DNA of 64,000 nt from Dehalococcoidia bacterium. GTDB taxonomy: Bacteria; Chloroflexota; Dehalococcoidia; Plut-88900. Location: assembly GCA_965207225.1 (NCBI GenBank), contig CBDBLV010000003.1, forward strand, positions 160,001 through 224,000. The letters run 5' to 3'. Of this stretch, positions 14,392 to 61,441 are shown one piece after another. Under the pieces are notes generated by a model that was not told the DNA's origin, made no database searches, and saw only the letters and a list, made by a program, of their open reading frames with translations. Every line of letters begins with the position of its first letter. The stretch's first letter is position 1. The position numbers were made by a program, and so were the translations under genes.

Positions 14392-14410
14392 AATGGGCTT
14401 CCTGCCTACG

Positions 14411-14434: not shown

Positions 14435-14466
14435 CAAGTCCAGAAGGGATTCGGAGGAAACGACAC

Positions 14467-15396: not shown

Positions 15397-15443
15397 GCCT
15401 ACAGAGGTCGCGCATTGCGGAATTCCCCAGGAGCCTGGGAGGA

Positions 15444-16379: not shown

Positions 16380-16479
16380 GTCAGCAGTGTCCCGTCCCAA
16401 AGAAAGATAAAGGGTTGGCATCGAATGCCAACCCTTTACTTCTTATCAGCAAATCTAAGCTATTTTCGGTCCTCTACCC

Positions 16480-17643: not shown

Positions 17644-17776
17644 TTTCGGTGCTCCTCCCGGGACGCAATTGCCAGAAATTACAGGCGGTAATTATATCAC
17701 GGCCACGGTTACATCCATTCGGGCTTTCAGCTAGAATGAACCCCGACTCCCTACAGTACCCGAAGAGGTTTGCGCC

Positions 17777-18721
17777 ATGCCCAAAGTCGAATTCGGCCCC
17801 CTTTACACCACCATGGAGAAATACATCGGCCCGGTGGAGTTCGCCGAAAAGGCCGAAGCCTGGGGCTACGACTACTACTGGGTGCCCGACTACGTCACGC
17901 TTAGCCCGATGGACGCCTTTGTTCTGCTGTCGGCGGTGGGACAGAGGACCACGTCCATCAAGTTGGGTACCGCTGTTGTGGTCGTGCCGTTCAGGACGCC
18001 CTTCCAGCTGGCGAAGGCCTCGGCGACGGTGGACGTGTTGTCGGGAGGGCGGTTCACCCTGGGGGTGGGGATTGGGGGGGCCGTGCCCCGAGACTTTGAT
18101 GTCGCCCAGGTCGACATGCGAAAGCGCGGGCGCATCTCCAACGAGACCCTCCACATTACGCGACGCCTCCTCACCGAAGAGAACGTCAGCCACCGCGGCC
18201 ATTACTATTCATTCGACGACCTTACAATCGAGCCAAGGCCCGTCAGCGACACTGGCATCCCCATCTGGATCGGCTCAATCTGCAACAATGGCTTCCCCCA
18301 GGGCGTCGTGGACCGGGCTGCACGCTATGGCGACGGCTTCTACCCCACCGACACCCCAATCGAAGAGTTCAAGAAGGTCCAGGAGCGCATCCGGTCCAAG
18401 GCGAAGGAGATGGGTCGGGACCCGGACTCCATCCAGTGGGGGCTGCTGGCCTGGACTTGTGGTGGTGGTTCCAAGGAGGAGGCTCGGCAGACGGCGAGCC
18501 GTGAGATAAGCAAGCGGCTGGAGTCGGAGTGGGACGTCCAGGCGGAGAATGGCTACATCCTGGGCACCCCCGAGGAGATGGCCGAGACCCTGCAGGGCTA
18601 CGTCGATATCGGGGTCACCAATTTCGTCGTGGACCCGGCCTGTGCCCCCGAGGACATGCTCGAAATGTTCGAGGTCTTCGCGAAAGAGGTGGTGCCTCAC
18701 TTCAGGGGCGAAGACAGCTGA
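17777..18721 (+). CDS. LLM-class oxidoreductase
   Basis: LGTAVVVVPFR, SGGRFTLGVGIG; first of five consecutive paralogs. Confidence 0.9.
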   Translation: MPKVEFGPLYTTMEKYIGPVEFAEKAEAWGYDYYWVPDYVTLSPMDAFVLLSAVGQRTTSIKLGTAVVVVPFRTPFQLAKASATVDVLSGGRFTLGVGIGGAVPRDFDVAQVDMRKRGRISNETLHITRRLLTEENVSHRGHYYSFDDLTIEPRPVSDTGIPIWIGSICNNGFPQGVVDRAARYGDGFYPTDTPIEEFKKVQERIRSKAKEMGRDPDSIQWGLLAWTCGGGSKEEARQTASREISKRLESEWDVQAENGYILGTPEEMAETLQGYVDIGVTNFVVDPACAPEDMLEMFEVFAKEVVPHFRGEDS

Positions 18722-19671
18722 TGAGCGAATTGGGATTCGGGGTCACCCTGTTCGACGCGAATGAACGGCCAGTCATCAAGCAGGGTGTCGATGCCGAGGC
18801 CTGGAACTACTCCATCTTCTGGGCCCCCGAGTTCCTAGGTATCCCCACCCTGGAGCCCTTTCCCGTCCTCTCAGCAGTAGCACAGCACACAACCAGCATC
18901 AGGCTCGGCACCGGAATAGCGGGGCTGTCCGTCCGCAGCCCCGTCCAGATGGCCAAGGCCGCCGTCACCACGGACATCCTTTCCAACGGTCGGTTTGTCC
19001 TGGGGCTGGGGTTGGGGGGCCTTATTCCCAAAGACCTGGAGGTGGAGAACGTACCCAGCCTGGGGGAACGAGGCCGCATCTCCAACGAACGGCTCGAAAT
19101 CCTTTACCGTCTCTTCACAGAGCGCACCATCTCCCATTCCGGCGACTACTACAACTTCAAGGACTACACGTTTGGGCCGGGGCCCGTGCAGAAGCCACGC
19201 ATACCAATCTGGCTCGGGGCACGGTACACGGGCAAGATCGCCGATGCCGCCATGAAGCGGGCCGGGACCTACGCCGACGTGTTCATCTTCCCCGCCGATA
19301 CCCCCACAACCTACTATCCCTACGCCAAGGACAAGGTCCGGGCCTACGCGGAGGCGGCGGGTCGGGACCCGGAGGCCATAGGGTTCGCCAGCACGATGTG
19401 GACGTGCCTAGGATCAACTCGGGAGCGGGCCATAGATGTGGCGAACCGTATAATCCCGGAGATGCTCAGCGTGCCCTGGAAGGTGCCAGACAACGCCTGT
19501 TACGGAATGGGTACGCCTGAAGACTGCATCGCGACGGCGGAGGAATTCAAAGACCTGGGAGTCTCCCACATCATCATGAACCCCTGCTGTGATTACGAAG
19601 AGGTCACAGCTCAGACCGAGCGGTTCGGGCGTGAGGTAGTCCCGCACTTCCAGACTAAAGGCGCTAGATGA
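18721..19671 (+). CDS. LLM-class oxidoreductase
   Basis: ATG overlaps the previous stop (TGATG); SNGRFVLGLGLG; close paralog of the next gene. Confidence 0.9.
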   Translation: MSELGFGVTLFDANERPVIKQGVDAEAWNYSIFWAPEFLGIPTLEPFPVLSAVAQHTTSIRLGTGIAGLSVRSPVQMAKAAVTTDILSNGRFVLGLGLGGLIPKDLEVENVPSLGERGRISNERLEILYRLFTERTISHSGDYYNFKDYTFGPGPVQKPRIPIWLGARYTGKIADAAMKRAGTYADVFIFPADTPTTYYPYAKDKVRAYAEAAGRDPEAIGFASTMWTCLGSTRERAIDVANRIIPEMLSVPWKVPDNACYGMGTPEDCIATAEEFKDLGVSHIIMNPCCDYEEVTAQTERFGREVVPHFQTKGAR

Positions 19672-20612
19672 GCCCAATGCAATTCGGCGTAACCCATACG
19701 AGGTCCGAGGAACGGACTGCTGTCCAGCAGGGTGTCGATGCCGAGAATTGGGGGTTCTCCATATTCTGGGCCCCGGAGTTCCTCGCCATCCCCACACTGG
19801 AGCCCTTCGCCGTTCTTTCCGCGGTAGCACAGCACACCGCCTCCATCAGGTTAGGCACCGGGGTGGCAGGGCTGGCCCTCAGAAGCCCCTTCCAGCTGGC
19901 CAAGGCCGCCATCACCACCGACATTCTTTCCAACGGACGGTTGGTGCTGGGGCTCGGTCTCGGAGGCGTGCATCCCAAGGACCTGGAAGTCGAGGGCATA
20001 CCGAACCTGCGGGAGCGGGGCCGCATCTCCGACGAACGTCTCGAAATCCTCTACCGGCTTTTCACTGAGAAGAACGTCTCCCACTCCGACGAGTACTACC
20101 AGTTCGAGGACTTCACCCTCACCCCCGACCCCGTGCAGAAACCCCACGTGCCCATCTGGGTCGGGGCACGGTGGTCGGGCAAGATCTTCGACGCCGCCCT
20201 GAAGCGCGCCGGGACCTACGCCGATGTCTTCATCTTCCCCGCCGACACCCCAACGGACTACTACCCGGGCGCCAAGGAGAAAATCAGCAAGTACGCCGAA
20301 GCTGCAGGCCGGGACCCGGGCGATATCCGTTACGCCTCGACTATCTGGACATGCCTCGCCTCATCGCGGGAAGAAGCAAAGGCCATTGCCAACCGTGAGA
20401 TTACCCGTTCGCTGCAAGTCCCCTGGGTGGTCCCCGACAACGCCTGCTACGGGCTCGGCACGCCGGAGGACTGCATAGCCACCGTGGAGGAATTCGCAGA
20501 CCTCGGCGTATCCCACCTACTCCTGGCGCCCTGCTGTGAACCCGCAGAAACCACGGCACAGACCGAGCAGTTCGGCCGCGAAGTCGTATCCCATTTCAAA
20601 GGTGTTGAGTAA
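19668..20612 (+). CDS. LLM-class oxidoreductase
   Basis: ATGA overlap; shares long identical blocks with 18721-19671. Confidence 0.9.
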   Translation: MSPMQFGVTHTRSEERTAVQQGVDAENWGFSIFWAPEFLAIPTLEPFAVLSAVAQHTASIRLGTGVAGLALRSPFQLAKAAITTDILSNGRLVLGLGLGGVHPKDLEVEGIPNLRERGRISDERLEILYRLFTEKNVSHSDEYYQFEDFTLTPDPVQKPHVPIWVGARWSGKIFDAALKRAGTYADVFIFPADTPTDYYPGAKEKISKYAEAAGRDPGDIRYASTIWTCLASSREEAKAIANREITRSLQVPWVVPDNACYGLGTPEDCIATVEEFADLGVSHLLLAPCCEPAETTAQTEQFGREVVSHFKGVE

Positions 20613-21541
20613 TGAGCAAACTGCAGTTCGGACCCCTCTTTTTCCCCACCGAAGAAGGCCCCGAGGCCCTGGAACTCGCCAAAATGGCCGACGATCTCGG
20701 CTACGACTACTTCTGGGTGCCTGACTACGTGACCCTCCCTTATTTGGACGCCTTCGTGCTCCTGGCTGCCGCGGCCCGGGAGACCAAGAATGTGAGACTT
20801 GGGACAGCGGTGACCCTGGCCCCGTTCCGGTCGCCCTTCCAGATGTTCAAGGATGCGGCCTCGGTTGACGTGCTTTCGGACGGGAGGCTGACGCTGGGCG
20901 TGGGTATCGGCGCAGTGGCCCGAGACTTTGAGATCGCCCAGGTCGACTTCCGTAAGCGGGGCCGCATCTCTGACGAGTACATCGACATCACCCGACGTCT
21001 TCTCGCCGAGGAGCACGTGGACTACGACGGCGAGTTTTACAGCTTCCGCGACCTGACCATGGGCCCCAGGCCCGTGCAGAAGCCCGTCCCCATCTGGATT
21101 GGCGCGAATGGCCAGAACGGCTTTCCCCCGGGCGTGCTGCGCAGGGCCGGACGGCTGGGCGACGGCTTTTTCCCCACAGAGACTCCGGTCAAGACCTTCA
21201 CGGAGGCCCAAGCCAGCATCCAGGAGCACGCCGAGGCCGTGGGTCGGGACCCCGACGCCATCGGCTGGGGACTGCTCACCTGGAGCGCCCTGGCCGACAA
21301 CCGGGAAGAGGGGGTCAGGACAGCTGAAAGGGAGATCGGGGCCCGGCTGAACAAGGTACACACGGTGAACCCGGATGCCGGGTACGCCGTCGGGCGGCCG
21401 GAGGACATGATCGAGACCATCGAGTCCTTCGCCGAAATTGGCGTGACCAACTTTGTCATAGACCCTGGCTGCCACCCCCGCGACATCCGCACCCTTGTCG
21501 AGACCTTCGCCAAAGAGGTCATGCCCCATTTCCGCGACTAG
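20612..21541 (+). CDS. LLM-class oxidoreductase
   Basis: TAATG overlap; paralog of 17777 (WVPDYVTL, DFEIAQVD, NFVIDPGC). Confidence 0.9.
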   Translation: MSKLQFGPLFFPTEEGPEALELAKMADDLGYDYFWVPDYVTLPYLDAFVLLAAAARETKNVRLGTAVTLAPFRSPFQMFKDAASVDVLSDGRLTLGVGIGAVARDFEIAQVDFRKRGRISDEYIDITRRLLAEEHVDYDGEFYSFRDLTMGPRPVQKPVPIWIGANGQNGFPPGVLRRAGRLGDGFFPTETPVKTFTEAQASIQEHAEAVGRDPDAIGWGLLTWSALADNREEGVRTAEREIGARLNKVHTVNPDAGYAVGRPEDMIETIESFAEIGVTNFVIDPGCHPRDIRTLVETFAKEVMPHFRD

Positions 21542-22442
21542 GCCGATGATTCGAGCCAAAGGAGACTGACATGGCCCTGAAAATAGGCATCCACGCTGGT
21601 CCGCAGGACTGCTCCTACGAAGACCTGAAACGGCTGTGGCACATGGCCGACTCCTCGGGGTTTTACTGGGTCTCGGTCTGGGACCACTTCTACGAGACCC
21701 CGGTTATCGACGGCAAGGGCCCCTGCTTCGAGGCCGTGTCCATCATGACCGCCCTGGCTGCAGAGACCAAGAACGTACGGGTAGGGTGCCTGGTATTCTG
21801 CGTCGGGACCCGGAACCCGGGCTTGCTGGCTAAAGCTGCAGTCACTATCGACCACGTCAGCAACGGGCGGCTGGAGCTGGGCATCGGGTACGGGCCCTGG
21901 GGTCCGGAATACGTTGCCTACGGGCTCGACCTACCCACCATGAAGACCCAGATGGACATCCTAGAGGAATCTGCGCAGATCACCCGCTCCATGCTCCACA
22001 ACGGGACAACCAGTTTCCAAGGTAAGCACTTCCAGATCGAGAACGCCCACGTATACCCCCGACCCGTCCAGGACCCCCCGAGGCTCTGGATAGCGGGCAT
22101 AGGTGAAAGGCGCATTCTGCCGATGGTCGCTCGCTACGCCGACGGCTGGAACGCCACATACATCCCCGACGCCGCCTTCAAGTCCAAGAACGAACTCTTG
22201 AACAGGCTTTGCGAAGAAGGGGGTCGGGACCCGGCGGAGATCGCCCGTACCTGCAACGTCGGCTTCTACATGGGCGCCGACCAGAAGGCCGCTGAGCGAA
22301 AGCGTCGGGAGTTCGAGGAGAAGTGGGGTAGGGGGGAGGCGGGACCCGACGACGCGAAATACGACAAGGACCGGGACTACCTCTCGGAATTCGAACAGGG
22401 GATGATCTTCGGCACTGCCCAGAACGCCATAGAGCGGCTCGG

Positions 22443-24330
22443 CCCAAATCCACCGCCTAATTGAATGAGAATACCTCGTTGGAGTCGGCTGCAAAGCTGA
22501 CTAAGATGGTAAGTGACAATCCCAAACCATCACCAACGAGGTGCAGTTATTATGCAACATGGAGTCCTACCGTTCCAGTACAGGGCAGAGAACCGCATCG
22601 GGGGCATGACGGCGCTATCGGGGTTGGCAGTCTACCTGGAGATGGCCGAGGCAATCGGCCTTGGCGAGTCGATCAGACGCCACGTGAGGGTCAGAGAGGG
22701 AGGCCAGGGTTGGACGGACCGTCAGATGGTCACCTCACTGACGCTGTTGAACCTGGCGGGCGGCGAAGGGGTGGACGACCTTCGCGTGCTGGAGGCGGAC
22801 GAGGGCCTTGGCCGGATGTTGGGAAGGGTGGAGACCCACCGGCAGCGAGCTTCGGAGCGCAGGGCGGTGCGCAACCGGTGGCGGCGTGACCGACACCGCT
22901 ATGTGCCGTCTCCATCGGCGGTGTTCCGGTATCTGAGCCAGTTCCACGACGCATCCCAGGAGGAGGCGAGGCAGCCTCATACGGCGTTCATACCCCAGGC
23001 CAACGACGCGCTGGACGGACTTGGGAAGGTCAACGCCGAGATGGTGGGCTTTGTCCAGGGCCACGTCGGGCATAGGCAGGCGACACTGGATATGGACGCG
23101 ACGCTGGTCGAGACTCACAAGCAGGAGGCGCTCTACTGCTACAAGGGATTCAAAGCCTATCAGCCGCTAACGACATACTGGGCCGAGGCGGACCTGGTCG
23201 TCCACTCGGAGTTCAGAGACGGCAACGTTCCTGCGGGATTTGAGCAGCTACGAGTGTTGCGAGACGCGTTGGAGTGCGTACCCGAGGGAGTGGAGCGGGT
23301 GATGCTGCGGTCCGACACGGCAGGCTACCAGAACGATCTTCTGGAGTACTGCGCCGAGGGGAGAGACGAACGGTTCGGAGTGATCGAGTTCGCGATTGGG
23401 GTACGCGTCACGGACGAGTTCAAGCATGAGGCGGCGCTGGTGGAAGAGAGCGAGTGGCGTCAGTTGCCCCGGATGATGGGGGAGTTCGAGGTGGAGACGG
23501 GGCAGGAGTGGGCCGAGGTGGGCTTCATGTCCAGTCGATTAGGTCGCTACAAGGAGGGTCCCGCCTACCGTTTCATAGCCGTCAGAGAACCTCTGAGGCG
23601 ACCGCCGCTACCGGGCATGGAGAGTGAGTTTGAGCTGTCGGTTCCGGTCATGCAGATGCCGAACCACGGCTGGTACAAGATCAGCGGGATAGTGACGAAC
23701 CGGGAGCTTCCGGGAGACGAGGTTGTGCGGTGGTACCGTGAGAGATGCGGGAAAGGCGAGGAGGTCCATAGTGTGCTGAAGGAGGACCTGGCGGGCGGGA
23801 GACTGCCGTCGGGACAGTTCGGAGCCAACGCAGCGTGGTGGGCGATAACGGTGCTGGCGTTCAACCTGAACTCGGCGGTCAAGCAGTTGGCGCTGGGTGA
23901 TGAGTGGGTGACCAAGCGGCTCAAGGCGGTGCGCTTCGCTCTGATCGACCTTGCCGGTCGAGTGGTCTACCATGCCAGGAAGCTGCTGATCCGACTGGCG
24001 CGAGGTCATCCATCGTTCCCGCTGCTGGTCGGGGCACACCGGAGAATAGCGGCGCTGGCTCACGGCCCTCCCTGAATCTGAGACGGTCCGCGCCACAGCC
24101 TATCGGTCAAGCGACGTGGATAACCGTCGTAGGGACGCTGCGTCCTCCTACGAGGCCAAACGGCTCAAAATCGACGCAAAACATCGTAAAGCAGCACCCC
24201 AAGACCCTCATACGTCCACCATCGGCCCCGCCAAACCACTGCTAACCCTGTCAGTAGCCAATCGACGCCCCCACCGGCCCAACCGAAAGGTCAGAAAATC
24301 AGATTCCTACCTTTAGGCGGTGGATTTGGG
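22443..24330 (+). mobile_element. IS1380-family insertion sequence, 1888 bp
   Basis: Perfect 18-bp terminal IRs CCCAAATCCACCGCCTAA (22443-22460) and TTAGGCGGTGGATTTGGG (24313-24330); TCGG duplicated on both flanks. Confidence 0.95.
22552..24075 (+). CDS. IS1380-family DDE transposase
   Basis: TLDMDAT, YQPL, FRDGNVPA, RSDTAGY, YRERCGKGEE, FGANAAW. Confidence 0.92.
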   Translation: MQHGVLPFQYRAENRIGGMTALSGLAVYLEMAEAIGLGESIRRHVRVREGGQGWTDRQMVTSLTLLNLAGGEGVDDLRVLEADEGLGRMLGRVETHRQRASERRAVRNRWRRDRHRYVPSPSAVFRYLSQFHDASQEEARQPHTAFIPQANDALDGLGKVNAEMVGFVQGHVGHRQATLDMDATLVETHKQEALYCYKGFKAYQPLTTYWAEADLVVHSEFRDGNVPAGFEQLRVLRDALECVPEGVERVMLRSDTAGYQNDLLEYCAEGRDERFGVIEFAIGVRVTDEFKHEAALVEESEWRQLPRMMGEFEVETGQEWAEVGFMSSRLGRYKEGPAYRFIAVREPLRRPPLPGMESEFELSVPVMQMPNHGWYKISGIVTNRELPGDEVVRWYRERCGKGEEVHSVLKEDLAGGRLPSGQFGANAAWWAITVLAFNLNSAVKQLALGDEWVTKRLKAVRFALIDLAGRVVYHARKLLIRLARGHPSFPLLVGAHRRIAALAHGPP

Positions 24331-32913: not shown

Positions 32914-32920
32914 GCAAAGG

Positions 32921-33111
32921 AAAAGCCCCGAGGCGCTTCAGCCTTACGGCAGTCCCGGTGGACAACCCGGGAACCTCGGGGCTCGGTGCCTGTGCGGATT
33001 CCGTAAACGGAACCCATCGGGCACAACATCGTGTCAAACCGTTTACGTTACAGACACCTCACCAGTCCGTTTATCATCTATTTCCAATTGATCACCTCCT
33101 TTCTTGATGTA
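32921..33111 (-). ncRNA. Candidate small structured RNA / sORF transcript
   Basis: TTGCGC-18 nt-TATATT promoter (33146-33117); AGAAAGGAGGTGATC (33104-33090); internal hairpins; branched terminal stem plus T run. Confidence 0.5.
33043..33087 (-). CDS. 14-aa small ORF MEIDDKRTGEVSVT
   Basis: TTG start 7 nt after the GGAGG core of an extended SD; TAA stop. Confidence 0.4.
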   Translation of the reverse strand: MEIDDKRTGEVSVT

Positions 33112-38239: not shown

Positions 38240-38530
38240 GTGATCCATTCTTTCAGACACAGCGGGCTCAGCGCATTCTTCAGTAAAGTGGAGAAGCAAC
38301 AGGTCTATACTGAGCATGCCAAAAGGCTAAGACGCGTCTTGACAATGCTCAACAGCAGTACGTCCATGGAGAGTCTGAATTTTCCAGGACTTCGGATTCG
38401 CCGGCTTTCGGGAAAGAAGAATGGTCATTACGCTGTGTTGGTGTGGGACAATTGGTGGATTACCTTTCGCTTTAAAGACGGAAACTTATACGATGTCGAC
38501 TACAGGACTTTCACTGTGGAGGCGATGTGA
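38240..38530 (+). CDS. higB: HigB-like (plasmid killer) toxin, apparently degenerate
   Basis: MIHSFRHSGL, HAKRLR, ITFRFKDG; canonical C-terminal DYH absent in frame. Confidence 0.75.
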   Translation: MIHSFRHSGLSAFFSKVEKQQVYTEHAKRLRRVLTMLNSSTSMESLNFPGLRIRRLSGKKNGHYAVLVWDNWWITFRFKDGNLYDVDYRTFTVEAM

Positions 38531-38847
38531 TGCCGATGGCCGACCCCTGTCATCCCGGCGAGATAATTAGACACGAATGCCTGGCGCCATTGGACCTGCA
38601 CGTTAAAGGGGCGGCCAGGGAGTTGGGCGTAAGTCGGCAGGCGTTTTCGAACCTGCTCAACGCCAGGGCCGGGGTGTCGACGAGCATGGCTTTCAGATTG
38701 TCCAGGGTGTTCGGCTCTACGCCCGAGACGTGGCTCGCCATGCAGACGGCATACGACCTCTGGCAGGCGCGAGAACGGGCAAAAGAGACCAAGCCCGATG
38801 ATTTACCGGGCCCGGCGCTGCCTAGCCGGACCCCGACTCCTCCGTGA
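38527..38847 (+). CDS. higA: HigA antitoxin
   Basis: HPGEII, LGVSRQ, STPETWLAMQTAYDLWQA. Confidence 0.9.
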   Translation: MMPMADPCHPGEIIRHECLAPLDLHVKGAARELGVSRQAFSNLLNARAGVSTSMAFRLSRVFGSTPETWLAMQTAYDLWQARERAKETKPDDLPGPALPSRTPTPP

Positions 38848-52190: not shown

Positions 52191-52349
52191 TGACGCTTTG
52201 TCACACTAAACTTGTTGAATCGAAAACGGCGTATTATTCTTGACAATAAGCGCGCACAGCTTTAGCATGGCTAGCTGTCCTTAGGCCCAACGCAAGACTT
52301 CTTTGCCAAACAAACAGCGAGATTTTATCTCAATAGTGGGGTTCACACT

Positions 52350-53981
52350 ATGACATTCAACACCTTTAGAGGTCGTTTGCCGATGGCGTTGCTAGCACTC
52401 ATGCTGGTCGGCCTGCTGGCATTTGCCGGAATAGCGGGATGCTCGGGTGAAGAAGATGTGGTGGAAGAAGTAGAGCAAACCACCGAAGTAGTTGAGGGTG
52501 AAGAAGAGGTGGAACAGGCCACCGAAGCAGCTGAGGGTGAAGAAGAGGTAGTGGAAGAGGTGGAACAGGCCACCGAAGCAGCTGAGGGTGAAGAAGAGGC
52601 AGAGGAGGTGGAGGAGGCGGATAAGATAAAGGTTGTTACTACCACCAATTTTGTGGCTGATTGGGTCGAAAACGTGGGCGGCAACCGGGTGGAAGTGTTC
52701 AGCCTGGTCCCGACCGGCGCCGACCCCCACGGGTTCCAGCCCGGGGCGAGAGACGTTGCGAGGGTTGCGGATGCCGACCTGGTATTCAGCGTAGGGCTGG
52801 GGCTGGAAGACTCCTGGCTAAATGACCTGCTCCAAAACGCAGCCCGGGACCCCTCCCGCATTGTAGCGCTGACGGATTCGATAGAGCCGATAGAGTTTGG
52901 TGAAACCCACAGGGAAGACGTGGAACTGATCGCGGCCATCGAGGAAATCGTCCATGAAGTTGAAGAAGGCCATTTAAGCGCTGCTGATGCCATCGAGGAG
53001 ATAGAGCACCTCCTGGCTGCCAAGGAAGAGGGCCACGACGACCATGACCACGACGAGGAAGAGGGCCACGACGACCATGACCACGACGAGGAAGATGACC
53101 ACGACGACCACGACCACGATGAGGAAGATGACCACGACGACCATGACCACGATGAGGAAGATGACCACGACGACCATGACCACGATGAGGAAGATGACCA
53201 CGACGACCATGACCACGATGAGGAAGATGACCACGACGACCATGACCACGATGAGGAAGATGACCACGACGACCATGACCACGATGAGGAAGATGACCAC
53301 GACGACCATGACCATGGAGGGGAAAGTGTTGCCGCAAAGGTCCAGGCCATAATCGACCAGGTGGAAAGCGGCGCTATGTCCTTCGGCGAGGCCATTGAGG
53401 AGATCGACCACCTGGTGCATGATGAGGAGGATGCCCACGCGGGACACGGGCACGGCGTAGAAGACCCACACTTCTGGTTCGACCCACTACGGGTGAAGCT
53501 GGCAGTGGACTACATAGCTGAGCAGTTGTCAGTGCTGGACCCGGCCGGGGCCAACGGTTACTGGTCCAATGCGACAGCCTACAAGGCTCAACTGGATGAG
53601 CTGGACGCATGGACGCAAGAGCAGGTCAGTGCGGTGCCTGAGTCCAACCGATTCCTATTGACCTCCCACGACAGCCTCGGATACTTCGCCGACAGGTATG
53701 GCTTCGAGGTGATTGGAGTCATACTCGGAATCACCACGGAGGTAGAGCCTTCGGCGGAGCACCTGGTTGAACTCGTGCATACTATCGAGAGATACAATGT
53801 GCCGGCGGTGTTCGGCGAGACTACGGTCAGTGAACGGCTGGCCGCTGCGCTCGCTGGGGAGACGGGCGCCGAGTTGGTTAAGCTGTACTCGGGCTCGCTG
53901 GGCGCGGAAGGAAGCGGCGCGGAAACCTACATAGGCATGTTCAGGGCCAACGTGGAGAGCATAGTCGGCGCACTGAGGTAG
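52350..53981 (+). CDS. znuA: Zn/Mn ABC substrate-binding lipoprotein with a very long His/Asp-rich insert
   Basis: Lipobox IAGC, ADPHGF, DPHFWFDP, SHDSLGYF. Confidence 0.9.
   Translation: MTFNTFRGRLPMALLALMLVGLLAFAGIAGCSGEEDVVEEVEQTTEVVEGEEEVEQATEAAEGEEEVVEEVEQATEAAEGEEEAEEVEEADKIKVVTTTNFVADWVENVGGNRVEVFSLVPTGADPHGFQPGARDVARVADADLVFSVGLGLEDSWLNDLLQNAARDPSRIVALTDSIEPIEFGETHREDVELIAAIEEIVHEVEEGHLSAADAIEEIEHLLAAKEEGHDDHDHDEEEGHDDHDHDEEDDHDDHDHDEEDDHDDHDHDEEDDHDDHDHDEEDDHDDHDHDEEDDHDDHDHDEEDDHDDHDHDEEDDHDDHDHGGESVAAKVQAIIDQVESGAMSFGEAIEEIDHLVHDEEDAHAGHGHGVEDPHFWFDPLRVKLAVDYIAEQLSVLDPAGANGYWSNATAYKAQLDELDAWTQEQVSAVPESNRFLLTSHDSLGYFADRYGFEVIGVILGITTEVEPSAEHLVELVHTIERYNVPAVFGETTVSERLAAALAGETGAELVKLYSGSLGAEGSGAETYIGMFRANVESIVGALR
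53034..53315 (+). repeat. Coding 33-nt tandem repeat, 9 copies of HDDHDH(DEEDD)
   Basis: Direct reading: cacgacgaccatgaccacgatgaggaagatgac units, 282 nt. Confidence 0.95.
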
Positions 53982-54016: not shown

Positions 54017-54784
54017 ATGATAAAGACAGTTTCCAGTCCCGGTATAAGCGTCGATGACATCACCGTAGTTCGCGGCGGTCATACGGCGCTGACGGACGTT
54101 ACCTTTTCGGTAGGGCCAGCTACTCTCTTGGGAGTGGTAGGCCCTAACGGAGCAGGTAAGAGCACCTTGCTGGAGGCTATTGTTGGCCTATTGCCCCTGG
54201 ACAAGGGCTCGGTCCAACTTCATGGCTCTGCCGCCGAAAAGGGAGGGATAGCCTACGTTCCGCAAAGGGACAGGATAAACTGGGCCTTTCCGGCCACGGT
54301 GCACGACGTTGTGATGATGGGGAGGTGCTGCAACCTGGGATGGTTTCGACAGCCCGGTAGGTATGACCGGGAGTTGGTCTGCGAATGCCTGGAGCGGGTT
54401 GACATGTGGGACAGGCGCAGTTCGCCAATCACCGAGTTGTCGGGAGGGCAGCGCCAGAGGGTATTCATAGGTCGGGCGCTAGCGCAGGAGGCCAGTGTAA
54501 TCCTGCTGGACGAGGCATTCAGCGGCGTGGATGCCGGGGCCCAGGAAGACATCATCGAAGTACTTCAGGTTCTCCGGGACGAGGGCCGGGTAGCGGTGGT
54601 GGTAACCCACGACCTGACCAACCTTGCCCAGCGCTTCGACGAGATACTCTGCATTAACCATCACCTCTGCGCCAAGGGCCCTCCTGAAGAAGCCTTCACT
54701 CCTGAAGTCATGACGGAGCTCTACGGGTCTCACGGCGTTGAGTTCGCCCCCGATCACTACGAGCCGACCCTCAGCGGACGGTAG
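54017..54784 (+). CDS. znuC: Metal ABC transporter ATPase
   Basis: GPNGAGKST, YVPQ, LSGGQRQR, LLDE. Confidence 0.9.
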   Translation: MIKTVSSPGISVDDITVVRGGHTALTDVTFSVGPATLLGVVGPNGAGKSTLLEAIVGLLPLDKGSVQLHGSAAEKGGIAYVPQRDRINWAFPATVHDVVMMGRCCNLGWFRQPGRYDRELVCECLERVDMWDRRSSPITELSGGQRQRVFIGRALAQEASVILLDEAFSGVDAGAQEDIIEVLQVLRDEGRVAVVVTHDLTNLAQRFDEILCINHHLCAKGPPEEAFTPEVMTELYGSHGVEFAPDHYEPTLSGR

Positions 54785-55602
54785 TGGACTACATATCCGA
54801 TCCCTTCCAGTACAGCTTCATGGTGCGGGCGCTTATCGTGTCGGTGCTGGTGGGGGTGATGTGCCCGATACTGGGGGCATACGTGATCACCAGGGGTCGG
54901 GCCTTCATGGGCGACGCCCTGGCCCACTCCGTGCTGCCGGCCATGATAGCGGCCTTCATGCTGGGTTTCAGCCCCTTCTTCGCCGCGGTGCCGGCAGCAG
55001 TCCTGATAGCCATACTAATGGGGAGCATCAGTCGGCGCACGGGCATCAGCGAAGACACCTCGATTGGCATCATATTTGCGGGTATGTTCGCTCTCGGGCT
55101 GGTGATGCTGTCCACGGCGACAAATATCAACATTGATATAGAGGACCTGTTGCTTGGGCAGGTGCTGGGGGTTTCGCAGACTGATGTCTACGTGTCCCTG
55201 GGGCTGACGGCTCTGGTGCTGGCGGGACTATATGCCTTCCATCGACAGCTGATCTATACGACGTTCGACCTAGTGGGGGCGGCTGTTGTCGGGATCAAGA
55301 CCAGGATAATTGAATACGTGCTGCTGGCCCTTTTGGGCCTGGTGATAGTGATCGGGATCCAGGCGGCGGGTATCGTGCTGGTTATGGCTATGCTCATAAC
55401 TCCTGCCGCTGCGGCCTACCTGATAGCCAAGAGGTTCGTGGGGGTGATGGTGTTGGGGGCAGTGATTGGGGCTGCATCGGCAGTCACGGGCCTTTACCTC
55501 TCTTACTATGTGGACCTACCCTCGGGGCCGGCGATGGCACTGGTGGCGACGGGGGTCTTTGCAGTGACGGCTGTGGGGAAGCGGAGATTCGCGACCAGGT
55601 AG
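54784..55602 (+). CDS. znuB: Metal ABC transporter permease
   Basis: FMGDALAHSVLP, EDTSIGI, LITPAA. Confidence 0.9.
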   Translation: MDYISDPFQYSFMVRALIVSVLVGVMCPILGAYVITRGRAFMGDALAHSVLPAMIAAFMLGFSPFFAAVPAAVLIAILMGSISRRTGISEDTSIGIIFAGMFALGLVMLSTATNINIDIEDLLLGQVLGVSQTDVYVSLGLTALVLAGLYAFHRQLIYTTFDLVGAAVVGIKTRIIEYVLLALLGLVIVIGIQAAGIVLVMAMLITPAAAAYLIAKRFVGVMVLGAVIGAASAVTGLYLSYYVDLPSGPAMALVATGVFAVTAVGKRRFATR

Positions 55603-55810
55603 TCTGGCGGTCCCGCTCCACGAATGTCCGAAGAGTCCTTCCAACCCCGTTCAAGACGGCTGTGCCTATTCCCCGTTTAGTGAATGTGACGGGCCCCTGA
55701 AGTTAAGGCACTAGCAGTGCTTTTCCAACGAGGATTCGGGCGCTCCGTAAATTGGTTTTGATGTCCTATTGCATTTAATGAGACATATATGACATACTTA
55801 CTGAGACACG

Positions 55811-55831
55811 TATGAGATTTTGTATCTCATA
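55811..55831. promoter_or_regulatory. Perfect palindromic operator candidate upstream of the His/Cys peptide
   Basis: TATGAGAT-N5-ATCTCATA. Confidence 0.55.
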
Positions 55832-55899
55832 GCTTCAGCCGGGCCCCCGGACAGTCCGGGGGTTGGCATGCTGGAGAAAAAGCTCAGGAGGCAAATACT

Positions 55900-56121
55900 A
55901 TGGCAAACGCCCATGACTCTCATGAGTGCGACGCTCATGAGCACCACGGTGACGAGCCCGGGCACATCCACGACGCTCACGAGTGCGACGGGCACGAGCA
56001 CCACGCCGAGGACCACGGCCACGACTCGCATGAGTGCGACACGCACGAGCACCATGGCGACGAAGCCGGGCACGTACATGACCCGCACGAGTGCGACGGA
56101 CACGAGCACCACGGACACTAG
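55900..56121 (+). CDS. 73-aa His/Cys-rich repeat peptide, putative metal-binding protein
   Basis: AGGAGG SD; four HDxHECDxHEHH units; 24 His, 4 Cys, no Lys/Arg; own terminator. Confidence 0.75.
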   Translation: MANAHDSHECDAHEHHGDEPGHIHDAHECDGHEHHAEDHGHDSHECDTHEHHGDEAGHVHDPHECDGHEHHGH

Positions 56122-56168
56122 ACCGAAATATCCAGAAAATCGGCCAAGGTCGCTGGACCTTGGCAAGG

Positions 56169-56200
56169 AAAAGCGCCGACCTCTTTGGGTCGGCGCTTTT
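56169..56200. terminator. Bidirectional intrinsic terminator
   Basis: AAAAGCGCCGACC-loop-GGTCGGCGCTTTT. Confidence 0.8.
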
Positions 56201-56241
56201 GCGTTCACTGCGTTTAGAGGCCCGCTGCTAAGGATGGTGTG

Positions 56242-56544
56242 TTAGATGGGGAACCACTTCCTTCTAACGTTGCCGAAGCGAGACCGGGACACGAGGTGGT
56301 CTTCCTTGCATCCCAGTACGGATTCCTCTGCCTGTATCGTAGCGTGGGTGATACCGAAGTTGTCATGGGCGAGGTCCTTGATGCTCCTCAAGAGCTCATC
56401 CCTGTCTCCTGGGTAGTTGGGATTTATGAGCACATGGGCGGTGAAGGCGACCATTCCGGGGGTGATTGTCCAGACGTGAACGTCGTGGATGAAGGTAACG
56501 CATGGGATGTCCTCGGCGTCCCAGGGCTGGGGATGTGACTCCAC
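56242..56544 (-). pseudogene. C-terminal fragment of a CDF (CzcD/ZitB-like) metal exporter
   Basis: IHDVHVWTIT...TAHV...FGITHATIQAE; transmembrane domain absent, REP repeats lie upstream instead. Confidence 0.75.
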
Positions 56545-56597
56545 CGCTGCCTAGATCTGGAAATATCGTCGGAAGTACGGGTCCGTCAATTCTTGAG

Positions 56598-56708
56598 ACC
56601 CTTCGACCCAGTTCAGGGCGAGCGAAATGCCCCGCCCCCAAGGGATGGATTCCCGATCGGAGTCGGGAATAACGTTTATGCAAAGGTCTCCTTTAAGGGA
56701 GAAGGGGA
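56598..56708. repeat. Mosaic REP-like cluster B-A-D
   Basis: cccttcgacccagttcagggcgagcg; ggattcccgatcggagtcgggaataacg; tctcctttaagggaga. Confidence 0.7.
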
Positions 56709-56895
56709 AGAATAAACAGAGAGATGCACCTGCACCAAGACACAAGTGCATCTCTCCGATTTGTTACTGGAGGAGGACCAGGGGCCCTGATTGCAATATC
56801 ATTGTTTCAATTTATGGCCTAGTTTGGTACAATCAAAAACCGTGAGCAAAAAAAGCTCGAAATGGGTGCCTGATAGGAGAGGAGTGATTTTAGTC

Positions 56896-58014
56896 ATGAG
56901 ATATAAAGGCTTATTTGGGATGCTTGTACTCGGCGTCCTCCTGGCCGTGGTTGTCGCTTGCGGCGGTGGGCTTTCGGAGGAGGACGTGGAGACCCGGGCG
57001 CAGGAGTTGGCTGACCAGATGGCTGCCGAGATGGCCACGGGCGAAAGGCTGGCCGCCATACAGGAACGGGGCGTAGTAATATGCGCCAGCAGGAACGACG
57101 TACCGGGCTACGGATCCCTTGACGCAGCCGGCAACAACGTCGGATTCGACATAGACCTGTGCCGGGCGGTTGCTACCGCGGTGCTCGGGGACCCGAACGC
57201 CATTGAGATCCGGCTGATCACGGCGGCGGAACGAGGCCCGACGATCCAGTCAGGCGAAGTGGACCTGCTGGTAAGGACCGTGACTTGGACCACCTCCCGA
57301 GACGCAAGCTGGGGCAACTACGTGCAGACCATGTTCTACGACGGACAGGGTTTCATGGTCCCCAACTCTCTGGGCATTTCCAGCGCCCTGGAGCTAAAGG
57401 ACGCCACGGTCTGCGTAACCCAGGGAACTACGACAGAACTGAACCTCCAGGACTTCTCCAACCAGAACAACCTGAACATCACTCCGCTGACATTCGAGGA
57501 CACGGACGCCGTGGTCGCTGCTTATGAGAACGAGCAGTGCGACTCCTTCACCAATGACAACTCCCAGCTGGCCGCGCTGGGCACTGCGCTTTCGGACCGG
57601 AGCGCCCACACGATTCTTCCGGACACGATATCGGAAGAGCCCCTGGGGCCTGTTGTTCCTCATGGGGACGACCAGTGGTTCGACATCGTGAAGACGGTCA
57701 TGGGCATCCTGATCTACTCGGAGGCCTACGGGGTTGACTCGGGCAGCGTGCCCACATCGAGCACCGGAGACACCAAGGTTGACAGGCTGTTCGGCCTAGA
57801 GGGCTCCTTTGGACAGGACGCTCTTGGCCTGGACCAGACTGTTGCGCAGGACGTAATCAAGGCCGTTGGAAACTACGGCGAGATCTACGACCGCAACCTG
57901 GGCCCCGACGGGATCAACCTCCCCCGGGAAGGCGGACGGAACGCACTGTGGTCCAACGCCCCGTGCACCGACTGCCCGAAGGGCGGCCAGATATACGCAG
58001 CGCCTCTGCGTTAA
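56896..58014 (+). CDS. aapJ: General L-amino acid ABC substrate-binding lipoprotein (AapJ/BztA)
   Basis: GFDIDLCRAVA, TWTTSRD, FYDGQGF, GNYGEIYDRNLG, YAAPLR. Confidence 0.9.
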   Translation: MRYKGLFGMLVLGVLLAVVVACGGGLSEEDVETRAQELADQMAAEMATGERLAAIQERGVVICASRNDVPGYGSLDAAGNNVGFDIDLCRAVATAVLGDPNAIEIRLITAAERGPTIQSGEVDLLVRTVTWTTSRDASWGNYVQTMFYDGQGFMVPNSLGISSALELKDATVCVTQGTTTELNLQDFSNQNNLNITPLTFEDTDAVVAAYENEQCDSFTNDNSQLAALGTALSDRSAHTILPDTISEEPLGPVVPHGDDQWFDIVKTVMGILIYSEAYGVDSGSVPTSSTGDTKVDRLFGLEGSFGQDALGLDQTVAQDVIKAVGNYGEIYDRNLGPDGINLPREGGRNALWSNAPCTDCPKGGQIYAAPLR

Positions 58015-58147
58015 GATTTGAGCGCCATAGCGTAAAAGCAAACATGAAGGGTGGCCGACGGATGTGGGCCGCCCCTCAGCTTTTTGTCAAAAACGGGCAA
58101 AAGTCTTGCCGATGTAATAGAATCAGCCTGTTACTGGACTGGCTACA

Positions 58148-59362
58148 TTGCGCAACGCCATTACATCTCGACTCAACAGCCTGACCTACAAGGGCATACC
58201 GGTTTGGCGTCATGCCCAGGTAATCCAGTGGACGGCACAGATAGTCTCCGGGGTGGTGGTGGTTGCACTGGTTGCCTGGTTCTTCACCAATATCGGTAAT
58301 GCGATAAGCGACCGGGACATCCCGTTCGGGTTCAGCTTTCTGAGCCGGGAGTACCAGACGCCCATAGGACAGCATTTCCTGCCCTACGAATCGTCCGATT
58401 CATTCCTTTACGCCCTGGTTGTGGGCGCGACGAATACGATCTTCGTATCGGTCATCGGGGTAATCCTGGCGACGGCGCTGGGGATATTCATCGGGGTATC
58501 CCGGTTGTCGGGGAACTGGCTGGTCTCGAAGATCGCCTTGGTATACATCGAGTTCTTTCGAAACGTGCCTCTGCTGGTACAGCTCTTCTTCTGGTTCTAC
58601 ATCGTGCTTGCCCTCCCGACGGTTCGCGAAAGCTACAGCCTGGGAGACATCATCTACCTGAACAACGCAGGCCTGTACATTCCGATGGTGACTGGAAACG
58701 GTGTAACCCAAGGGTTCCTGTCGCTGGCATCGGTCGTGTTAGCGTTGGCCGCCGGTTACGTGGTCCACAAGGCGATGGCACGGCGAGAGGAGCAAACGGG
58801 ATCGACGTCTTACCCGGTTATTTCAGGCATTGGCGCGACGATCCTAGTGGGGCTGGTGGGATGGTTTGTCATCACGGCAATAAATGGAGGATTTCCCCTG
58901 ACAATCACGACTCCCGAGGCCCAGGGCACTTTTGGGCGTTTCCTGAGGGGCGACGGGTTTGAGTTGTCAGGTGGGATGATGGCGCTCCTGATTGGGTTGG
59001 TGATGTACACGGCATCTTTCATAGCGGAAATCGTGAGGGCAGGGATACAGTCGGTCGGGAAAGGCCAATCGGAGGCATCCAGGTCTCTCGGGCTTTCGGC
59101 CCTGGGCACAGTCAGGGAGGTGACCTTCCCCCAGGCACTGCGGGTGATTGTGCCGCCGACGATCAGCCAGTACCTGAACCTGACCAAGAACAGCAGCCTG
59201 GCGGCGGCAATCGGTTACACGGACCTGACGAACGTTGCCAAGACCATGACCCAGACGGCGCCGGCTCTGTCCATATTTGTCCTGATAATGGCGGCCTACC
59301 TAGCAATGAGTCTGACCTACTCTCTAATCGGAAACATCTATAACCGACGCATATCCTTCTGA
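58148..59362 (+). CDS. aapQ: Amino acid ABC permease (AapQ/BztB)
   Basis: FRNVPLLVQLFFWF, AEIVRAGIQSV, YLNLTKNSSLA. Confidence 0.88.
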   Translation: MRNAITSRLNSLTYKGIPVWRHAQVIQWTAQIVSGVVVVALVAWFFTNIGNAISDRDIPFGFSFLSREYQTPIGQHFLPYESSDSFLYALVVGATNTIFVSVIGVILATALGIFIGVSRLSGNWLVSKIALVYIEFFRNVPLLVQLFFWFYIVLALPTVRESYSLGDIIYLNNAGLYIPMVTGNGVTQGFLSLASVVLALAAGYVVHKAMARREEQTGSTSYPVISGIGATILVGLVGWFVITAINGGFPLTITTPEAQGTFGRFLRGDGFELSGGMMALLIGLVMYTASFIAEIVRAGIQSVGKGQSEASRSLGLSALGTVREVTFPQALRVIVPPTISQYLNLTKNSSLAAAIGYTDLTNVAKTMTQTAPALSIFVLIMAAYLAMSLTYSLIGNIYNRRISF

Positions 59363-59390
59363 CGAGGATGCGGAGAGGAATTTCAATCAA

Positions 59391-60656
59391 TTGGCCACTA
59401 GCCTGAATACGGGCCCGCCTTCGGTCCTTCCCCCGCCGCGATTCAGCCGGGGGGCGGTGGGGTGGGCGCGCGATAACCTGTTCAGCTCGTGGCACAACAG
59501 CGTGCTGACCGTGGTGTCGGGAGTGCTGGTAGTGGTGGGGCTGTGGTGGGGACTGAGGTGGGTGCTGGTGGATGCCGACTGGACGGTGATCTCCACCCTC
59601 GGGGGCTTCCTGGCAATGGGGGAGTATAACACCGAGAAGGCATGTGAGGGGCAAAACTGCTTCTGGCGACCCCAAGTCTCCCTGATGCTGGTGATGGTCC
59701 TGGCCGGGATGGCCTGGGGGATTGCCCAGGGAGGGACAGCCAGGAGGATCGCCATCATAGCGACCGTGGCGTTAGTCGCATTCGCTTTCCTGCCGTACAG
59801 CTTCGAGCGGATGGGGATGGACGTCCGGTTGCTTCTGGCGGCCAACATCCCGGCGGTCGGAGTCGGGTGGGCGCTTGGAAAGTACACGTCTCTGGGATCC
59901 ATACGAGGCGTCGTGATTTCCGGTATAGCTGTCTTCGTGCTTATCCTGTTGCTGCTGAGGGGGATACCCGGGGTCCCGGGCCTGGAGCCCGTGTCCGTGA
60001 TCTACTGGGGCGGCATGATGCTAAACCTGCTCCTAGCAGTTGCAGGAATAGTGCTCAGCTTACCCATCGGGATTGCGCTGGCGCTCGGGCGGCGGTCTCG
60101 GCTGCCGGTGGTGAAAGCCCTGTGCGTAGCGTTCATCGAAGTCTTCCGGGGGGTGCCGCTCATCACGCTTCTGTTCATGTCTTCCGTGCTGGTGCCACTG
60201 GCTTTCCCGGAAGACTTTCCGCTGAACAGGCTGTTTCGGGCGGGGATAATAATCACGCTGTTCAGTGCAGCCTATATGGCCGAGAACGTGCGGGGAGGGC
60301 TGCAGGCGCTGCACCCGGGACAGGCGGAGGCGGGGAGGGCTTTGGGCCTTCCAAGCTGGCAGACGATGACGTTCATATCGCTGCCGCAGGCCCTACGAAA
60401 CGTCATCCCGGCGATTGTCGGGCAGTTCATTTCCCTTTTTAAAGATACGACCCTGGTCACCATTATCGGCATGTTGGACATACTGGAGTTCGGTCGATCC
60501 TTCATCCAGTCGTACACCGTGGGAGGAGAGGTCATATACCTGGATAGACAGGAGGAACTCTTTATTTTCATAGCCCTCTGTTTCTGGGTATTCACCTATG
60601 GGATGTCCTACGTGAGCCGCAAGGTCGAACGGCATCTGGGCATAGGAGAGCGATAA
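59391..60656 (+). CDS. aapM: Amino acid ABC permease (AapM/BztC)
   Basis: [33 protein letters not shown]. Confidence 0.88.
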
Positions 60657-60676
60657 CGGGCATACAAGGTCGGGGG

Positions 60677-61441
60677 TTGAAGATGACTACGATGGAAAGC
60701 AAGAACGGCGCCGAAGACATAATCATCTGCAAAGACGTACATAAGTGGTACGGTGAGTTCCACGCACTGCGGGGGGTGACGACGACGATCAAGAAGGGGG
60801 AGGTGGTGGTGGTGTTCGGGCCCTCGGGGTCTGGGAAGTCGACGTTCATCCGGACTATCAACAGGCTGGAGGAGCACCAGCGGGGGCAGATCATAGTCGA
60901 CGGGATAGAGATGACCAACGACGTGCGGAACATCGACGCGATCCGCCGGGACGTGGGGATGGTGTTCCAGTCCTTCAACCTGTTCCCGCATCTATCGGTG
61001 ATGCGGAATATCACTCTGGCCCCGACCAAAGTGCGAAAGCTCCCGTCCGCCGAGGCGGAGAGGATAGCGATGGAGCTGCTGGAGCGGGTCGGGATCCCGG
61101 AGCAGGCCTACAAGTACCCGAAGGAGTTGTCGGGGGGGCAGCAGCAGCGGGTGGCGATAGCTCGGGCGCTGGCGATGCAGCCGAACATCATGCTGTTTGA
61201 CGAGCCTACCTCGGCGCTGGACCCGGAGATGATCAAGGAAGTGCTGGACGTGATGAAGGAGCTTGCGGAGTCGGGGATGACGATGATCGTGGTGTCACAC
61301 GAGATGGGCTTCGCCCGTGAGGTGGCGAACAGGATGATGATGTTCGACGAAGGGGTGATAATGGAGGAAGGGACCCCGCACCAGATCTTCAACGACCCGC
61401 AGAGCGACCGGACGAAACTGTTCCTATCGCAGATTCTGTAG
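60677..61441 (+). CDS. aapP: Amino acid ABC ATPase (AapP/BztD); start may be 60683 or 60692
   Basis: [29 protein letters not shown]. Confidence 0.9.

Follow-up and report, generated by a model that had tools for sequence, protein, structure and literature searches.

Introduction

Small proteins of the CopZ/Atx1 type have a ferredoxin-like fold with a CxxC motif and bind Cu(I), and for CopZ the hand-over of the metal to a copper P1B-ATPase has been proven. Together with the N-domains of the copper P1B-ATPases, they represent a system in which a small soluble binder is homologous to the cytoplasmic N-terminal module of an exporter and is encoded beside that exporter. In this work, a similar arrangement was analysed, starting from a 64,000-nucleotide stretch of a Dehalococcoidia bacterium genome (contig CBDBLV010000003.1, positions 160,001 to 224,000; hereafter the window). 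It comprises a 73-residue protein made of HxHDxHECDxHEHH units (the HECD protein) and an exporter from the family of cation diffusion facilitators (CDF). The fold and motif of HECD are unrelated to those of CopZ, the protein being a His-dominated 14-residue repeat with one Cys per unit, and its partner is a CDF antiporter rather than a P-type ATPase. The metal is presumably Zn(II), and hand-over is known for CopZ while for HECD it is our proposal.

Other metal-binding proteins also offer points of comparison. The Hpn and Hpn-like proteins of Helicobacter pylori store nickel, contain poly-His runs and Cys-Cys pentapeptide repeats, and are associated with nickel enzymes. The SmtA/BmtA metallothioneins are dominated by Cys (approximately nine residues), adopt a zinc-finger-like fold and belong to the Pfam family Metallothio_Pro. 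The Pht proteins are surface lipoproteins in which the Pfam histidine-triad repeat contains HxxHxH triads. In marine Synechococcus, a single Zur sensor controls both znuABC and a metallothionein; Zur activates the metallothionein there and a CDF gene in Streptomyces, while it represses znuABC.

The N-terminus of CDF proteins is cytoplasmic, as seen in CDF structures, and HxxxD motifs in both transmembrane helices TM2 and TM5 (the HD-HD set) are a mark of the Zn/Co/Cd group. According to the excerpted text of PMC8341793, metal is chelated and transport modulated by cytoplasmic CDF segments rich in His, Cys, Asp and Glu (N-terminal tails, the His-rich TM4-5 loop of MTP1 and ZnTs, the HCH motif at the N-terminus of ZnT8). 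The same excerpt states that the A-site residues by themselves do not determine CDF metal selectivity, and it describes a cytoplasmic N-terminal tail just for the CDF class that has no C-terminal domain. How CDFs acquire their metal is given there as unknown, a specific metallochaperone being a matter of speculation (PMC8341793). The HECD module resembles the His-rich tails in that its fused copies occupy the same N-terminal position. Those segments are of low complexity and poorly conserved, whereas the HECD unit is fixed, near-invariant across phyla and encoded by a separate gene as well.

The HECD gene and its product

The HECD coding sequence was located at positions 55900..56121 on the plus strand, 8 nt behind a Shine-Dalgarno sequence AGGAGG (55886..55891). 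The encoded protein consists of four 14-residue units, the first of which lacks its leading His. The units are joined by the linker GDEPG inside a pair and by AED between pairs, and each pair contains two CDxH motifs. The composition was 24 His, 11 Asp, 11 Glu, 8 Gly, 6 Ala, 4 Cys and neither Lys nor Arg; His plus Cys were reported as 33% and Asp+Glu as 30%. The longest His run was two residues and no CC pair occurred. The gene was an internal duplication with halves identical at 27 of 32 residues and 80 of 96 nt, and Tandem Repeats Finder recorded at 55907-56113 a period of 108, 1.9 copies and 83% matches. A palindrome, the AGGAGG sequence and an acidic four-unit duplicated dimer with 24 His, 4 Cys and no basic residues had been listed in a preliminary description of this DNA, and all of them were found at or near the positions reported there. 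No hydrophobic stretch was detected in the protein, in agreement with the signal peptide having been reported as lacking. Among 82 family members, no 10-residue segment contained more than five hydrophobic residues, and 61 of the 82 had no Lys or Arg. We infer a cytoplasmic location for the protein.

The coding status of the gene was judged from codon-position variability in 66 four-unit genes (those of the loci described below and the window). The mean heterozygosity was 0.113, 0.132 and 0.402 at codon positions 1, 2 and 3, respectively, so that third positions were approximately 3.5 times more variable than the first and second ones. The median pairwise ratio of non-synonymous to synonymous divergence (dN/dS) was 0.10 for 918 pairs. 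Relative to most relatives, the synonymous sites were saturated, while the non-synonymous divergence was only 0.03-0.18. Across 64 distinct four-unit proteins, 36 of the 73 columns were invariant, including all His, Glu, Cys and Asp residues of the HECD cores. A Shine-Dalgarno-like GGAG, GAGG or AGGA was present at -20..-4 in 76 of 82 family genes, and 72 of the 82 started with ATG. The 73-residue open reading frame (ORF) is a real gene under strong purifying selection, far beyond chance.

It is very improbable that the ORF is non-functional, be it a His-codon leader or attenuator peptide, an ORF that arose by chance within a DNA repeat, or the detached fragment of a once-fused CDF. The underlying DNA is indeed an imperfect tandem repeat, two longer ORFs, 55820..56245 on the plus strand and 55798..56208 on the minus strand, overlap the gene, and protein collections hold few four-unit forms. 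Such a view is contradicted by the dN/dS of approximately 0.1 and by the third-position variation, which was seen in the HECD frame alone. Since it is the HECD frame that this variability identifies as coding, the overlapping ORFs were regarded as by-products of its codon composition. Moreover, the gene has its own Shine-Dalgarno sequence and a strong terminator, most loci have no same-strand gene after it, and it is kept as a separate gene in 80 loci of two phyla. The scarcity of four-unit forms in protein collections suggests that annotation pipelines miss the gene.

The HECD family

Relatives of the HECD protein were collected by several searches. The word-indexed search yielded 36 proteins at E ≤ 0.01 among 49 candidates, and phmmer, run exhaustively against 1.84 billion cluster representatives, yielded 27 at E ≤ 0.001. 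The profile search returned 85 relatives at E ≤ 0.001 among 6,118 candidates; none of these 85 carried a source-given name or a Pfam domain. Further, a scan of 185,579 species, each represented by a single genome, gave 464 pattern matches, of which 234 encoded a HECD relative. The HECD-repeat module thus represents an unnamed family found in at least 234 species-level genomes, its members having two or more in-frame HxHDxHECDxHEHH units and both beginning and ending near the repeats. The preliminary description had treated the gene as a single case, which has to be replaced by a conserved family of 2 to 10 units in at least 234 species-level genomes.

The statistics of loci rest on the best 80 of the 234 loci, ranked against the four-unit query, plus the window (81 sources), a set skewed to that query which leaves the context of the two-unit forms (~35-55 aa) outside it. 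In these loci, the free HECD proteins contained 3 to 10 units. Four units were found in 66 of 83 ORFs, eight in six and ten in three, and the sole two-unit ORF was the fused CDF of locus L048. Many database members of ~35-55 aa carry two units, and some database entries were wrong-frame or over-extended calls. Going by record titles, 62 of the 80 loci belonged to Chloroflexota (52 Dehalococcoidia, 5 assigned as 'Chloroflexota', 3 Tepidiformaceae, 1 SAR202 and 1 Anaerolineaceae) and 13 to Acidimicrobiia, including two of Candidatus Spongiisociaceae or Spongiisocius; the other five were labelled only as 'bacterium'. The closest relative was found on a Dehalococcoidia chromosome (L008, OZ241876.1), with a protein identity of 99% and 84-94% identity of the flanking DNA. 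In another Dehalococcoidia locus, L001, two four-unit genes were arranged in tandem (8001-8228 and 8375-8605).

The window protein showed no match in Pfam (E ≤ 0.01), NCBIfam (E ≤ 1) or, by profile, the PDB (E ≤ 1). No fold was predicted by AlphaFold2 from a 64-row alignment, the predicted local distance difference test (pLDDT) score being 44.9 and the predicted template modelling (pTM) score 0.12. A zinc ribbon or knuckle was also considered: the CDxH pairs are present, the fold prediction was of the same low confidence, and the PDB profile search gave no match at E ≤ 1. The top feature score in the ESM Atlas, 0.76 to an unnamed cluster, was uninformative. In the literature searched, which covered papers other than subscription-only ones, the HECD motif or family was not described, and the literal motif returned 0 papers. 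These searches bear out the earlier proposal of an independent, cytoplasmic, metal-homeostasis-linked His/Cys protein outside any described family. The homologue and synteny search suggested along with it gave relatives in at least 234 species-level genomes, a CDF gene in 60 of 81 loci, and no characterised family.

The HECD protein was further compared with the described His- and Cys-rich proteins. Like Hpn, it is a small cytoplasmic protein in which His makes up about a third to a half of the residues, poor in Cys and devoid of a signal peptide, with divalent-metal buffering as the proposed role. It was not assigned as Hpn or Hpn-like, judged by the general definition of those proteins, as its longest His run is 2, it has no CC and it is linked in the genome to transporters of zinc. 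Neither urease nor hydrogenase was present among those window genes that were scanned. With SmtA/BmtA it shares small size, a proposed zinc-buffering role and a location near zinc homeostasis genes; identity with these metallothioneins was rejected due to the lack of a Pfam match at E ≤ 0.01, 4 Cys versus 24 His, and no predicted fold. The Pht proteins were rejected as well, given that no Pfam match and no signal or lipoprotein sequence were found.

Association with CDF exporters

The neighbours of the HECD genes were called with a longest-ORF script, up to four genes per side. The resulting 625 proteins were grouped by blastp into 314 clusters, and the representatives were named by Pfam. The largest cluster was the CDF family (Cation_efflux plus ZT_dimer), with 62 proteins in 60 of 81 sources within four genes. 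A CDF gene directly adjoined the HECD gene in 59 of the 81. Of the 62 CDF genes, 47 were convergent immediate neighbours, 11 lay directly downstream on the same strand and 2 directly upstream. The shortest same-strand gaps between the two genes were 11 nt (L050) and 51 nt (L010). Because the genes beyond the pair differ widely, HECD and CDF were regarded as a conserved two-gene module in changing surroundings.

Long N-terminal tails in which His and Asp are abundant characterise the HECD-adjacent CDFs. Their best specific model was ZitB, at 242-264 bits, which is under the equivalog cut-off of 408 bits, while the general CDF model TIGR01297 was passed with 264-293 bits versus a cut-off of 82. 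The residues H158, D162, H267 and D271 of the TM2/TM5 site were invariant in 53 CDF sequences. By these sequence features, the neighbouring transporter is assigned to the zinc-type CDFs of the ZitB/CzcD group.

A search of longer proteins gave 7 matches among 217 candidates. Five of them were PF01545 proteins of 398-448 aa, in which two or four N-terminal HECD units were followed by an HD-rich stretch and then by the membrane domain; the remaining two were over-extended ORF calls. The best fused relative showed 81% identity to the window protein over 78% of its length (E = 1.5e-32). In L048, a free four-unit HECD gene (1920-2138, plus strand) converges on a CDF gene (2307-3503, minus strand) which itself encodes two N-terminal HECD units. 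All fused forms found carried an exporter, and fusions to an uptake component or to a COG0523-type chaperone were not observed among them. The fused copies stand at the CDF N-terminus, so if that terminus is cytoplasmic, the HECD module would act in the cytoplasm, on or beside the exporter. The preliminary description had placed the gene after the znu genes and convergent on a CDF remnant. This position was confirmed by the Pfam matches upstream and the ZT_dimer match downstream. The CDF gene proved to be more than a remnant, namely a conserved partner that is near in 60 of 81 loci and fused in several proteins, with znuABC genes near in 26 of 81.

We lean, with slightly better than even confidence, towards the HECD protein being a cytoplasmic multi-site Zn(II) binder, a free form of the CDF N-terminal module, which would buffer zinc and hand it to the CDF or regulate the CDF. 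His-rich binders and CDF tails as such are already known; what appears to be undescribed is a His/Cys repeat module of precise sequence, found as a free protein beside CDFs as well as in fusion with them. The earlier wording had been metal storage. An export-linked buffer or chaperone fits better than storage, because CDF genes are near in 60 of 81 loci, fusions join the module to CDFs, and znuABC genes are near in 26 of 81 only. Nickel had been named as a candidate metal too, and nothing in the analysis points to it.

Pure sequestration was considered as another explanation. In such a case, HECD would be a histidine-based analogue of metallothionein or Hpn for excess or toxic metal (Zn, Cd, Ni, Co or Cu) that makes no specific contact with a transporter, and its position beside CDF genes would be a matter of co-regulation alone. 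The content of His plus Cys (33%) and Asp+Glu (30%), the variation from 2 to 10 units, as expected for a capacity device, the tandem paralogues in L001 and the absence of a predicted fold are consistent with that role. However, the 14-residue unit is near-invariant across two phyla while the neighbouring HD-rich tails of the CDFs and ZnuA vary freely, which argues for precise geometry or a partner rather than bulk chelation, and the fusions put the module on the transporter itself. Sequestration alone was judged quite unlikely.

Genes of zinc uptake were the other recurrent neighbours. ZnuB was found in 20 sources, ZnuA in 17 and ZnuC in 10, with at least one of them in 26 of 81, and a Fur-family gene was present within four genes in 4 of 81. 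At least one CDF, Znu or Fur gene was near in 71 of the 81 sources, and L048, with its fused CDF, is among the 10 sources that had none. These data bear on a different proposal, in which HECD would be a zinc-limitation protein of a Zur-type regulon, made together with ZnuABC and taking importer zinc, which it would keep or pass on to client proteins as a reserve or as an allocation chaperone, not for export. In 9 of 81 loci, the window among them, znuB is followed directly by the HECD gene on the same strand (gaps of 87-297 nt), and of the 26 loci with Znu genes, 9 lack both a CDF and a Fur-family gene within a distance of four genes. Against this, 43 of 81 loci have a CDF and no Znu gene nearby, and every fused form found is joined to an exporter. 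Taken together with the regulatory sites described below, the zinc-limitation role was considered unlikely.

Genes of partner-switching type (STAS protein, REC-PP2C phosphatase and HATPase_c_2 kinase) also recurred within four genes of HECD in two phyla. They were seen in L031, L048, L054, L049, L028 and L010 (Acidimicrobiia or 'bacterium') and in L074, L077, L071 and L063 (Tepidiformaceae, Anaerolineaceae and Chloroflexota), and may reflect either a co-transferred block or a regulatory link.

Proposed mode of action

The following sequence of events was proposed for the HECD protein. Transcription of the gene from the conserved upstream block would be metal-responsive. The apo-protein would be mostly unfolded, and the invariant His, Cys, Asp and Glu side chains would serve as ligands of a divalent metal, most likely Zn(II). 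In each pair of units, the two CDxH knuckles could form a Cys2His2 site, and approximately nine further His residues with several carboxylates would provide weaker sites. The loaded protein would buffer cytosolic zinc and then pass it to, or tune, the neighbouring CDF, by which the metal would be exported through proton antiport.

A bolder version of this proposal assumes that HECD proteins serve CDF zinc exporters as dedicated metallochaperones of the cytosol or as regulatory N-domains acting in trans. In that version, Zn(II) would be collected at picomolar free levels and delivered to the CDF transport site or to the C-terminal sensor domain. We regard this as possible but rather doubtful. 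A complex prediction with two copies of the L008 CDF (110-431), HECD and 4 Zn gave a score of 0.00 relative to a mark of 0.32, with a partner pLDDT of <50, and counts neither way.

Several observations weigh against an export-linked zinc buffer. With a pLDDT of 44.9 and a pTM of 0.12, the AlphaFold2 model lends no structural support to defined metal sites, and Co, Ni, Cd or Cu are possible as the HECD metal. The longest-ORF calls mean that exact starts and some neighbour assignments may be off. No CDF gene was found within four genes in 21 of the 81 loci. In seven of these (L039, L043, L052, L053, L060, L070 and L076), the place of the CDF after HECD is taken by a convergent gene for a DEAD-box helicase that bears an MrfA Zn-binding domain, and six of these loci had ZnuA and/or ZnuB called upstream of HECD. 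The helicase-type loci belong to Acidimicrobiia, one being Candidatus Spongiisocius, and one is labelled only as 'bacterium'. The loci lacking a CDF, including this znuA/znuB-HECD-helicase arrangement, leave room for uptake-side or zinc-limitation roles. Finally, the HECD gene of the window is intact beside a truncated CDF gene, differing from that of L008 by 1 residue (non-synonymous proportion pN 0.006). It follows that either HECD does not strictly need that CDF, or the deletion happened very recently or is an assembly artefact.

Regulatory elements of the HECD locus

A block of ~75 bp upstream of the gene (55763..55838, plus strand), presumed to contain the promoter and operator, was near-invariant in the window, L008, L007, L017 and L001, while the sequence farther upstream was barely alignable. 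For comparison, the synonymous differences of the HECD gene were 0.48-0.73 per site for L007, L017 and L001. The block contains TGAGACA twice (55779-55785 and 55802-55808) and a perfect 8-5-8 palindrome, TATGAGAT-TTTGT-ATCTCATA, at 55811..55831, which is a candidate repressor or activator site. This palindrome was the sole occurrence of the exact pattern TGAGAY-N5-RTCTCA in the 64 kb. It was kept only in the four closest genomes, with one arm position changed in L017 and L001, and was not found upstream of the gene in other lineages, where the upstream sequences are unrelated.

Three hairpins were recognized around the gene. The G+C-rich leader hairpin at 55842..55864 (plus strand) has no U-tail, and the minimum free energy (MFE) of the region 55805-55899 was -39.9 kcal/mol (z = -4.0). 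Its stem was retained despite changes in both arms, as judged by reading five aligned sequences. The two hairpins located 3' of the stop codon had an MFE of -45.3 kcal/mol (z = -5.2). The first, at 56143..56164, has its U-rich run on the minus strand and looks like the terminator of the CDF gene. The second, at 56169..56200, consists of an A-tract, a GCGCCGACC stem and UUUU, is predicted to be a bidirectional intrinsic terminator of the HECD transcript, and was kept in L008, L007 and L017. It is the gene's own terminator that had been noted previously. No plus-strand promoter was detected upstream of HECD by a sigma-70 scan, and ATGACA-16-TATGAG, picked by eye, falls below the rule of that scan. 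A permissive Rfam search of 55550-56800 returned nothing, hence no known riboswitch, metal ones included, was detected around the gene.

The preliminary description had suggested half-sites common to the HECD and znuA promoters. A TGAGAT-type half-site is indeed present just upstream of znuA, within the palindrome GAGAT-TTT-ATCTC (52319..52331, 19 nt before the znuA start), but the spacing differs, being 5 nt at HECD and 3 nt at znuA. The pattern GAGA[TC]-N3-7-[GA]TCTC matched only two sites in the 64 kb, 52319 (spacer 3) and 55814 (spacer 5), and sites at the same two places were found in L008 and L017. One regulator common to znuA and the HECD gene is plausible from these sites and, due to the different spacers, not established. 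None of the 59 window ORFs of at least 90 codons that were scanned was a Fur, ArsR or MerR gene.

In other loci, Fur-family-like boxes were noticed. The box TTGAGAC-N-TATTATCA stands upstream of znuA beside Fur-family genes in L065, L069 and L080, and the box TGATACTGATTATCATTATC upstream of znuA in Acidimicrobiia. A further such box, TTGATATTGATTCTCATT, resembling the znuA boxes of L001 and L002, was located ~100 nt before the CDF start in L064 and L067. The znuA boxes of the relatives, as well as the GAGAT/ATCTC half-sites, which the znuA leader and the HECD upstream block have in common and which occur only twice in 64 kb, speak for the zinc-limitation role discussed above. The unequal spacers (5 nt at HECD and 3 nt at znuA) and the occurrence of a Fur-like box ahead of the CDF in L064 and L067 speak against it. 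Because of the latter, a Zur-type sensor could govern both directions, and a shared box is silent on the response of HECD. Likewise, since Zur acts on both uptake and export or buffer genes, a Zur site would not reveal the direction of the response.

The 11-mers common to the HECD upstream region and the rest of the locus were mostly noise, and no general operator in common with the CDF promoters was found among them; only L059 showed a repeated stretch ahead of both the HECD and CDF genes. A palindrome GATAC-N-GTATC was observed before the HECD gene in L044, L050 and L051, and was not repeated before the CDF genes of those loci.

Other genes of the window

Upstream of the HECD gene, three plus-strand genes encode a ZnuA-type substrate-binding protein whose His/Asp/Glu loop is unusually long (52350..53981; PF01297, E = 1.6e-59), a ZnuC-like ATP-binding cassette (ABC) ATPase (54017..54784; PF00005) and a ZnuB-like ABC-3 permease (54784..55602; PF00950, E = 2.4e-70). 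The znuA gene contains a repeat of 33 nt in 8.8 copies with 98% identity (53023-53314), which encodes about nine DHDDHDHDEE(D/E) units, and a second repeat of 51 nt in 2 copies (52503-52606).

The CDF remnant lies downstream on the minus strand (56242..56544) and retains only the C-terminal ZT_dimer (PF16916; ZitB/CDF C-terminus in NCBIfam). It is an ORF of 100 codons, the homology of which to the intact gene stops at 56515, so that approximately the last 90 codons are left. According to blastn, window positions 55721-56515 correspond to 7822-8628 of L008, and 56515-61441 to 9759-14685. The window therefore lacks L008 positions 8629-9758, i.e., 1,130 bp with the N-terminal two-thirds of the CDF and its promoter; the intact CDF ORF of L008 at the corresponding site has 431 aa. 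The gap may be either a true deletion or an assembly artefact.

Some features unrelated to the HECD locus were recorded as well. At the gathering threshold, Rfam detected in the whole window only Ms_IGR-5 (32917-33110, minus strand; 55 bits versus a gathering score of 45), a small RNA family described from Actinobacteria; the closest relative of the window is a Dehalococcoidia genome. A DNA methylase fused to an HNH nuclease is encoded at 100-1479 (minus strand), an alpha-type (eukaryotic-type) carbonic anhydrase, a zinc enzyme, at 4356-5051, and a DDE transposase at 22513-24072 (plus strand). Five luciferase-like monooxygenase genes occupy ~11 kb at 11286-22461, and a HigB-like toxin gene with an adjoining small ORF was found at 38240-38844 (plus strand).

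Implications

The HECD family is concentrated in uncultured Chloroflexota of the Dehalococcoidia/SAR202 type and in Acidimicrobiia, the metal physiology of which is essentially unknown. Its motif is a His-dominated, near-invariant 14-residue repeat unlike loose His-rich tails, and a novel type of zinc cluster may be built from it. In organisms from bacteria to humans, CDF/ZnT exporters have a central part in zinc homeostasis, and the HECD protein is a clonable metallochaperone candidate. If the bolder version of our proposal is true, it would answer how CDFs get their metal and would define a histidine-based metal-cluster motif distinct from metallothioneins.

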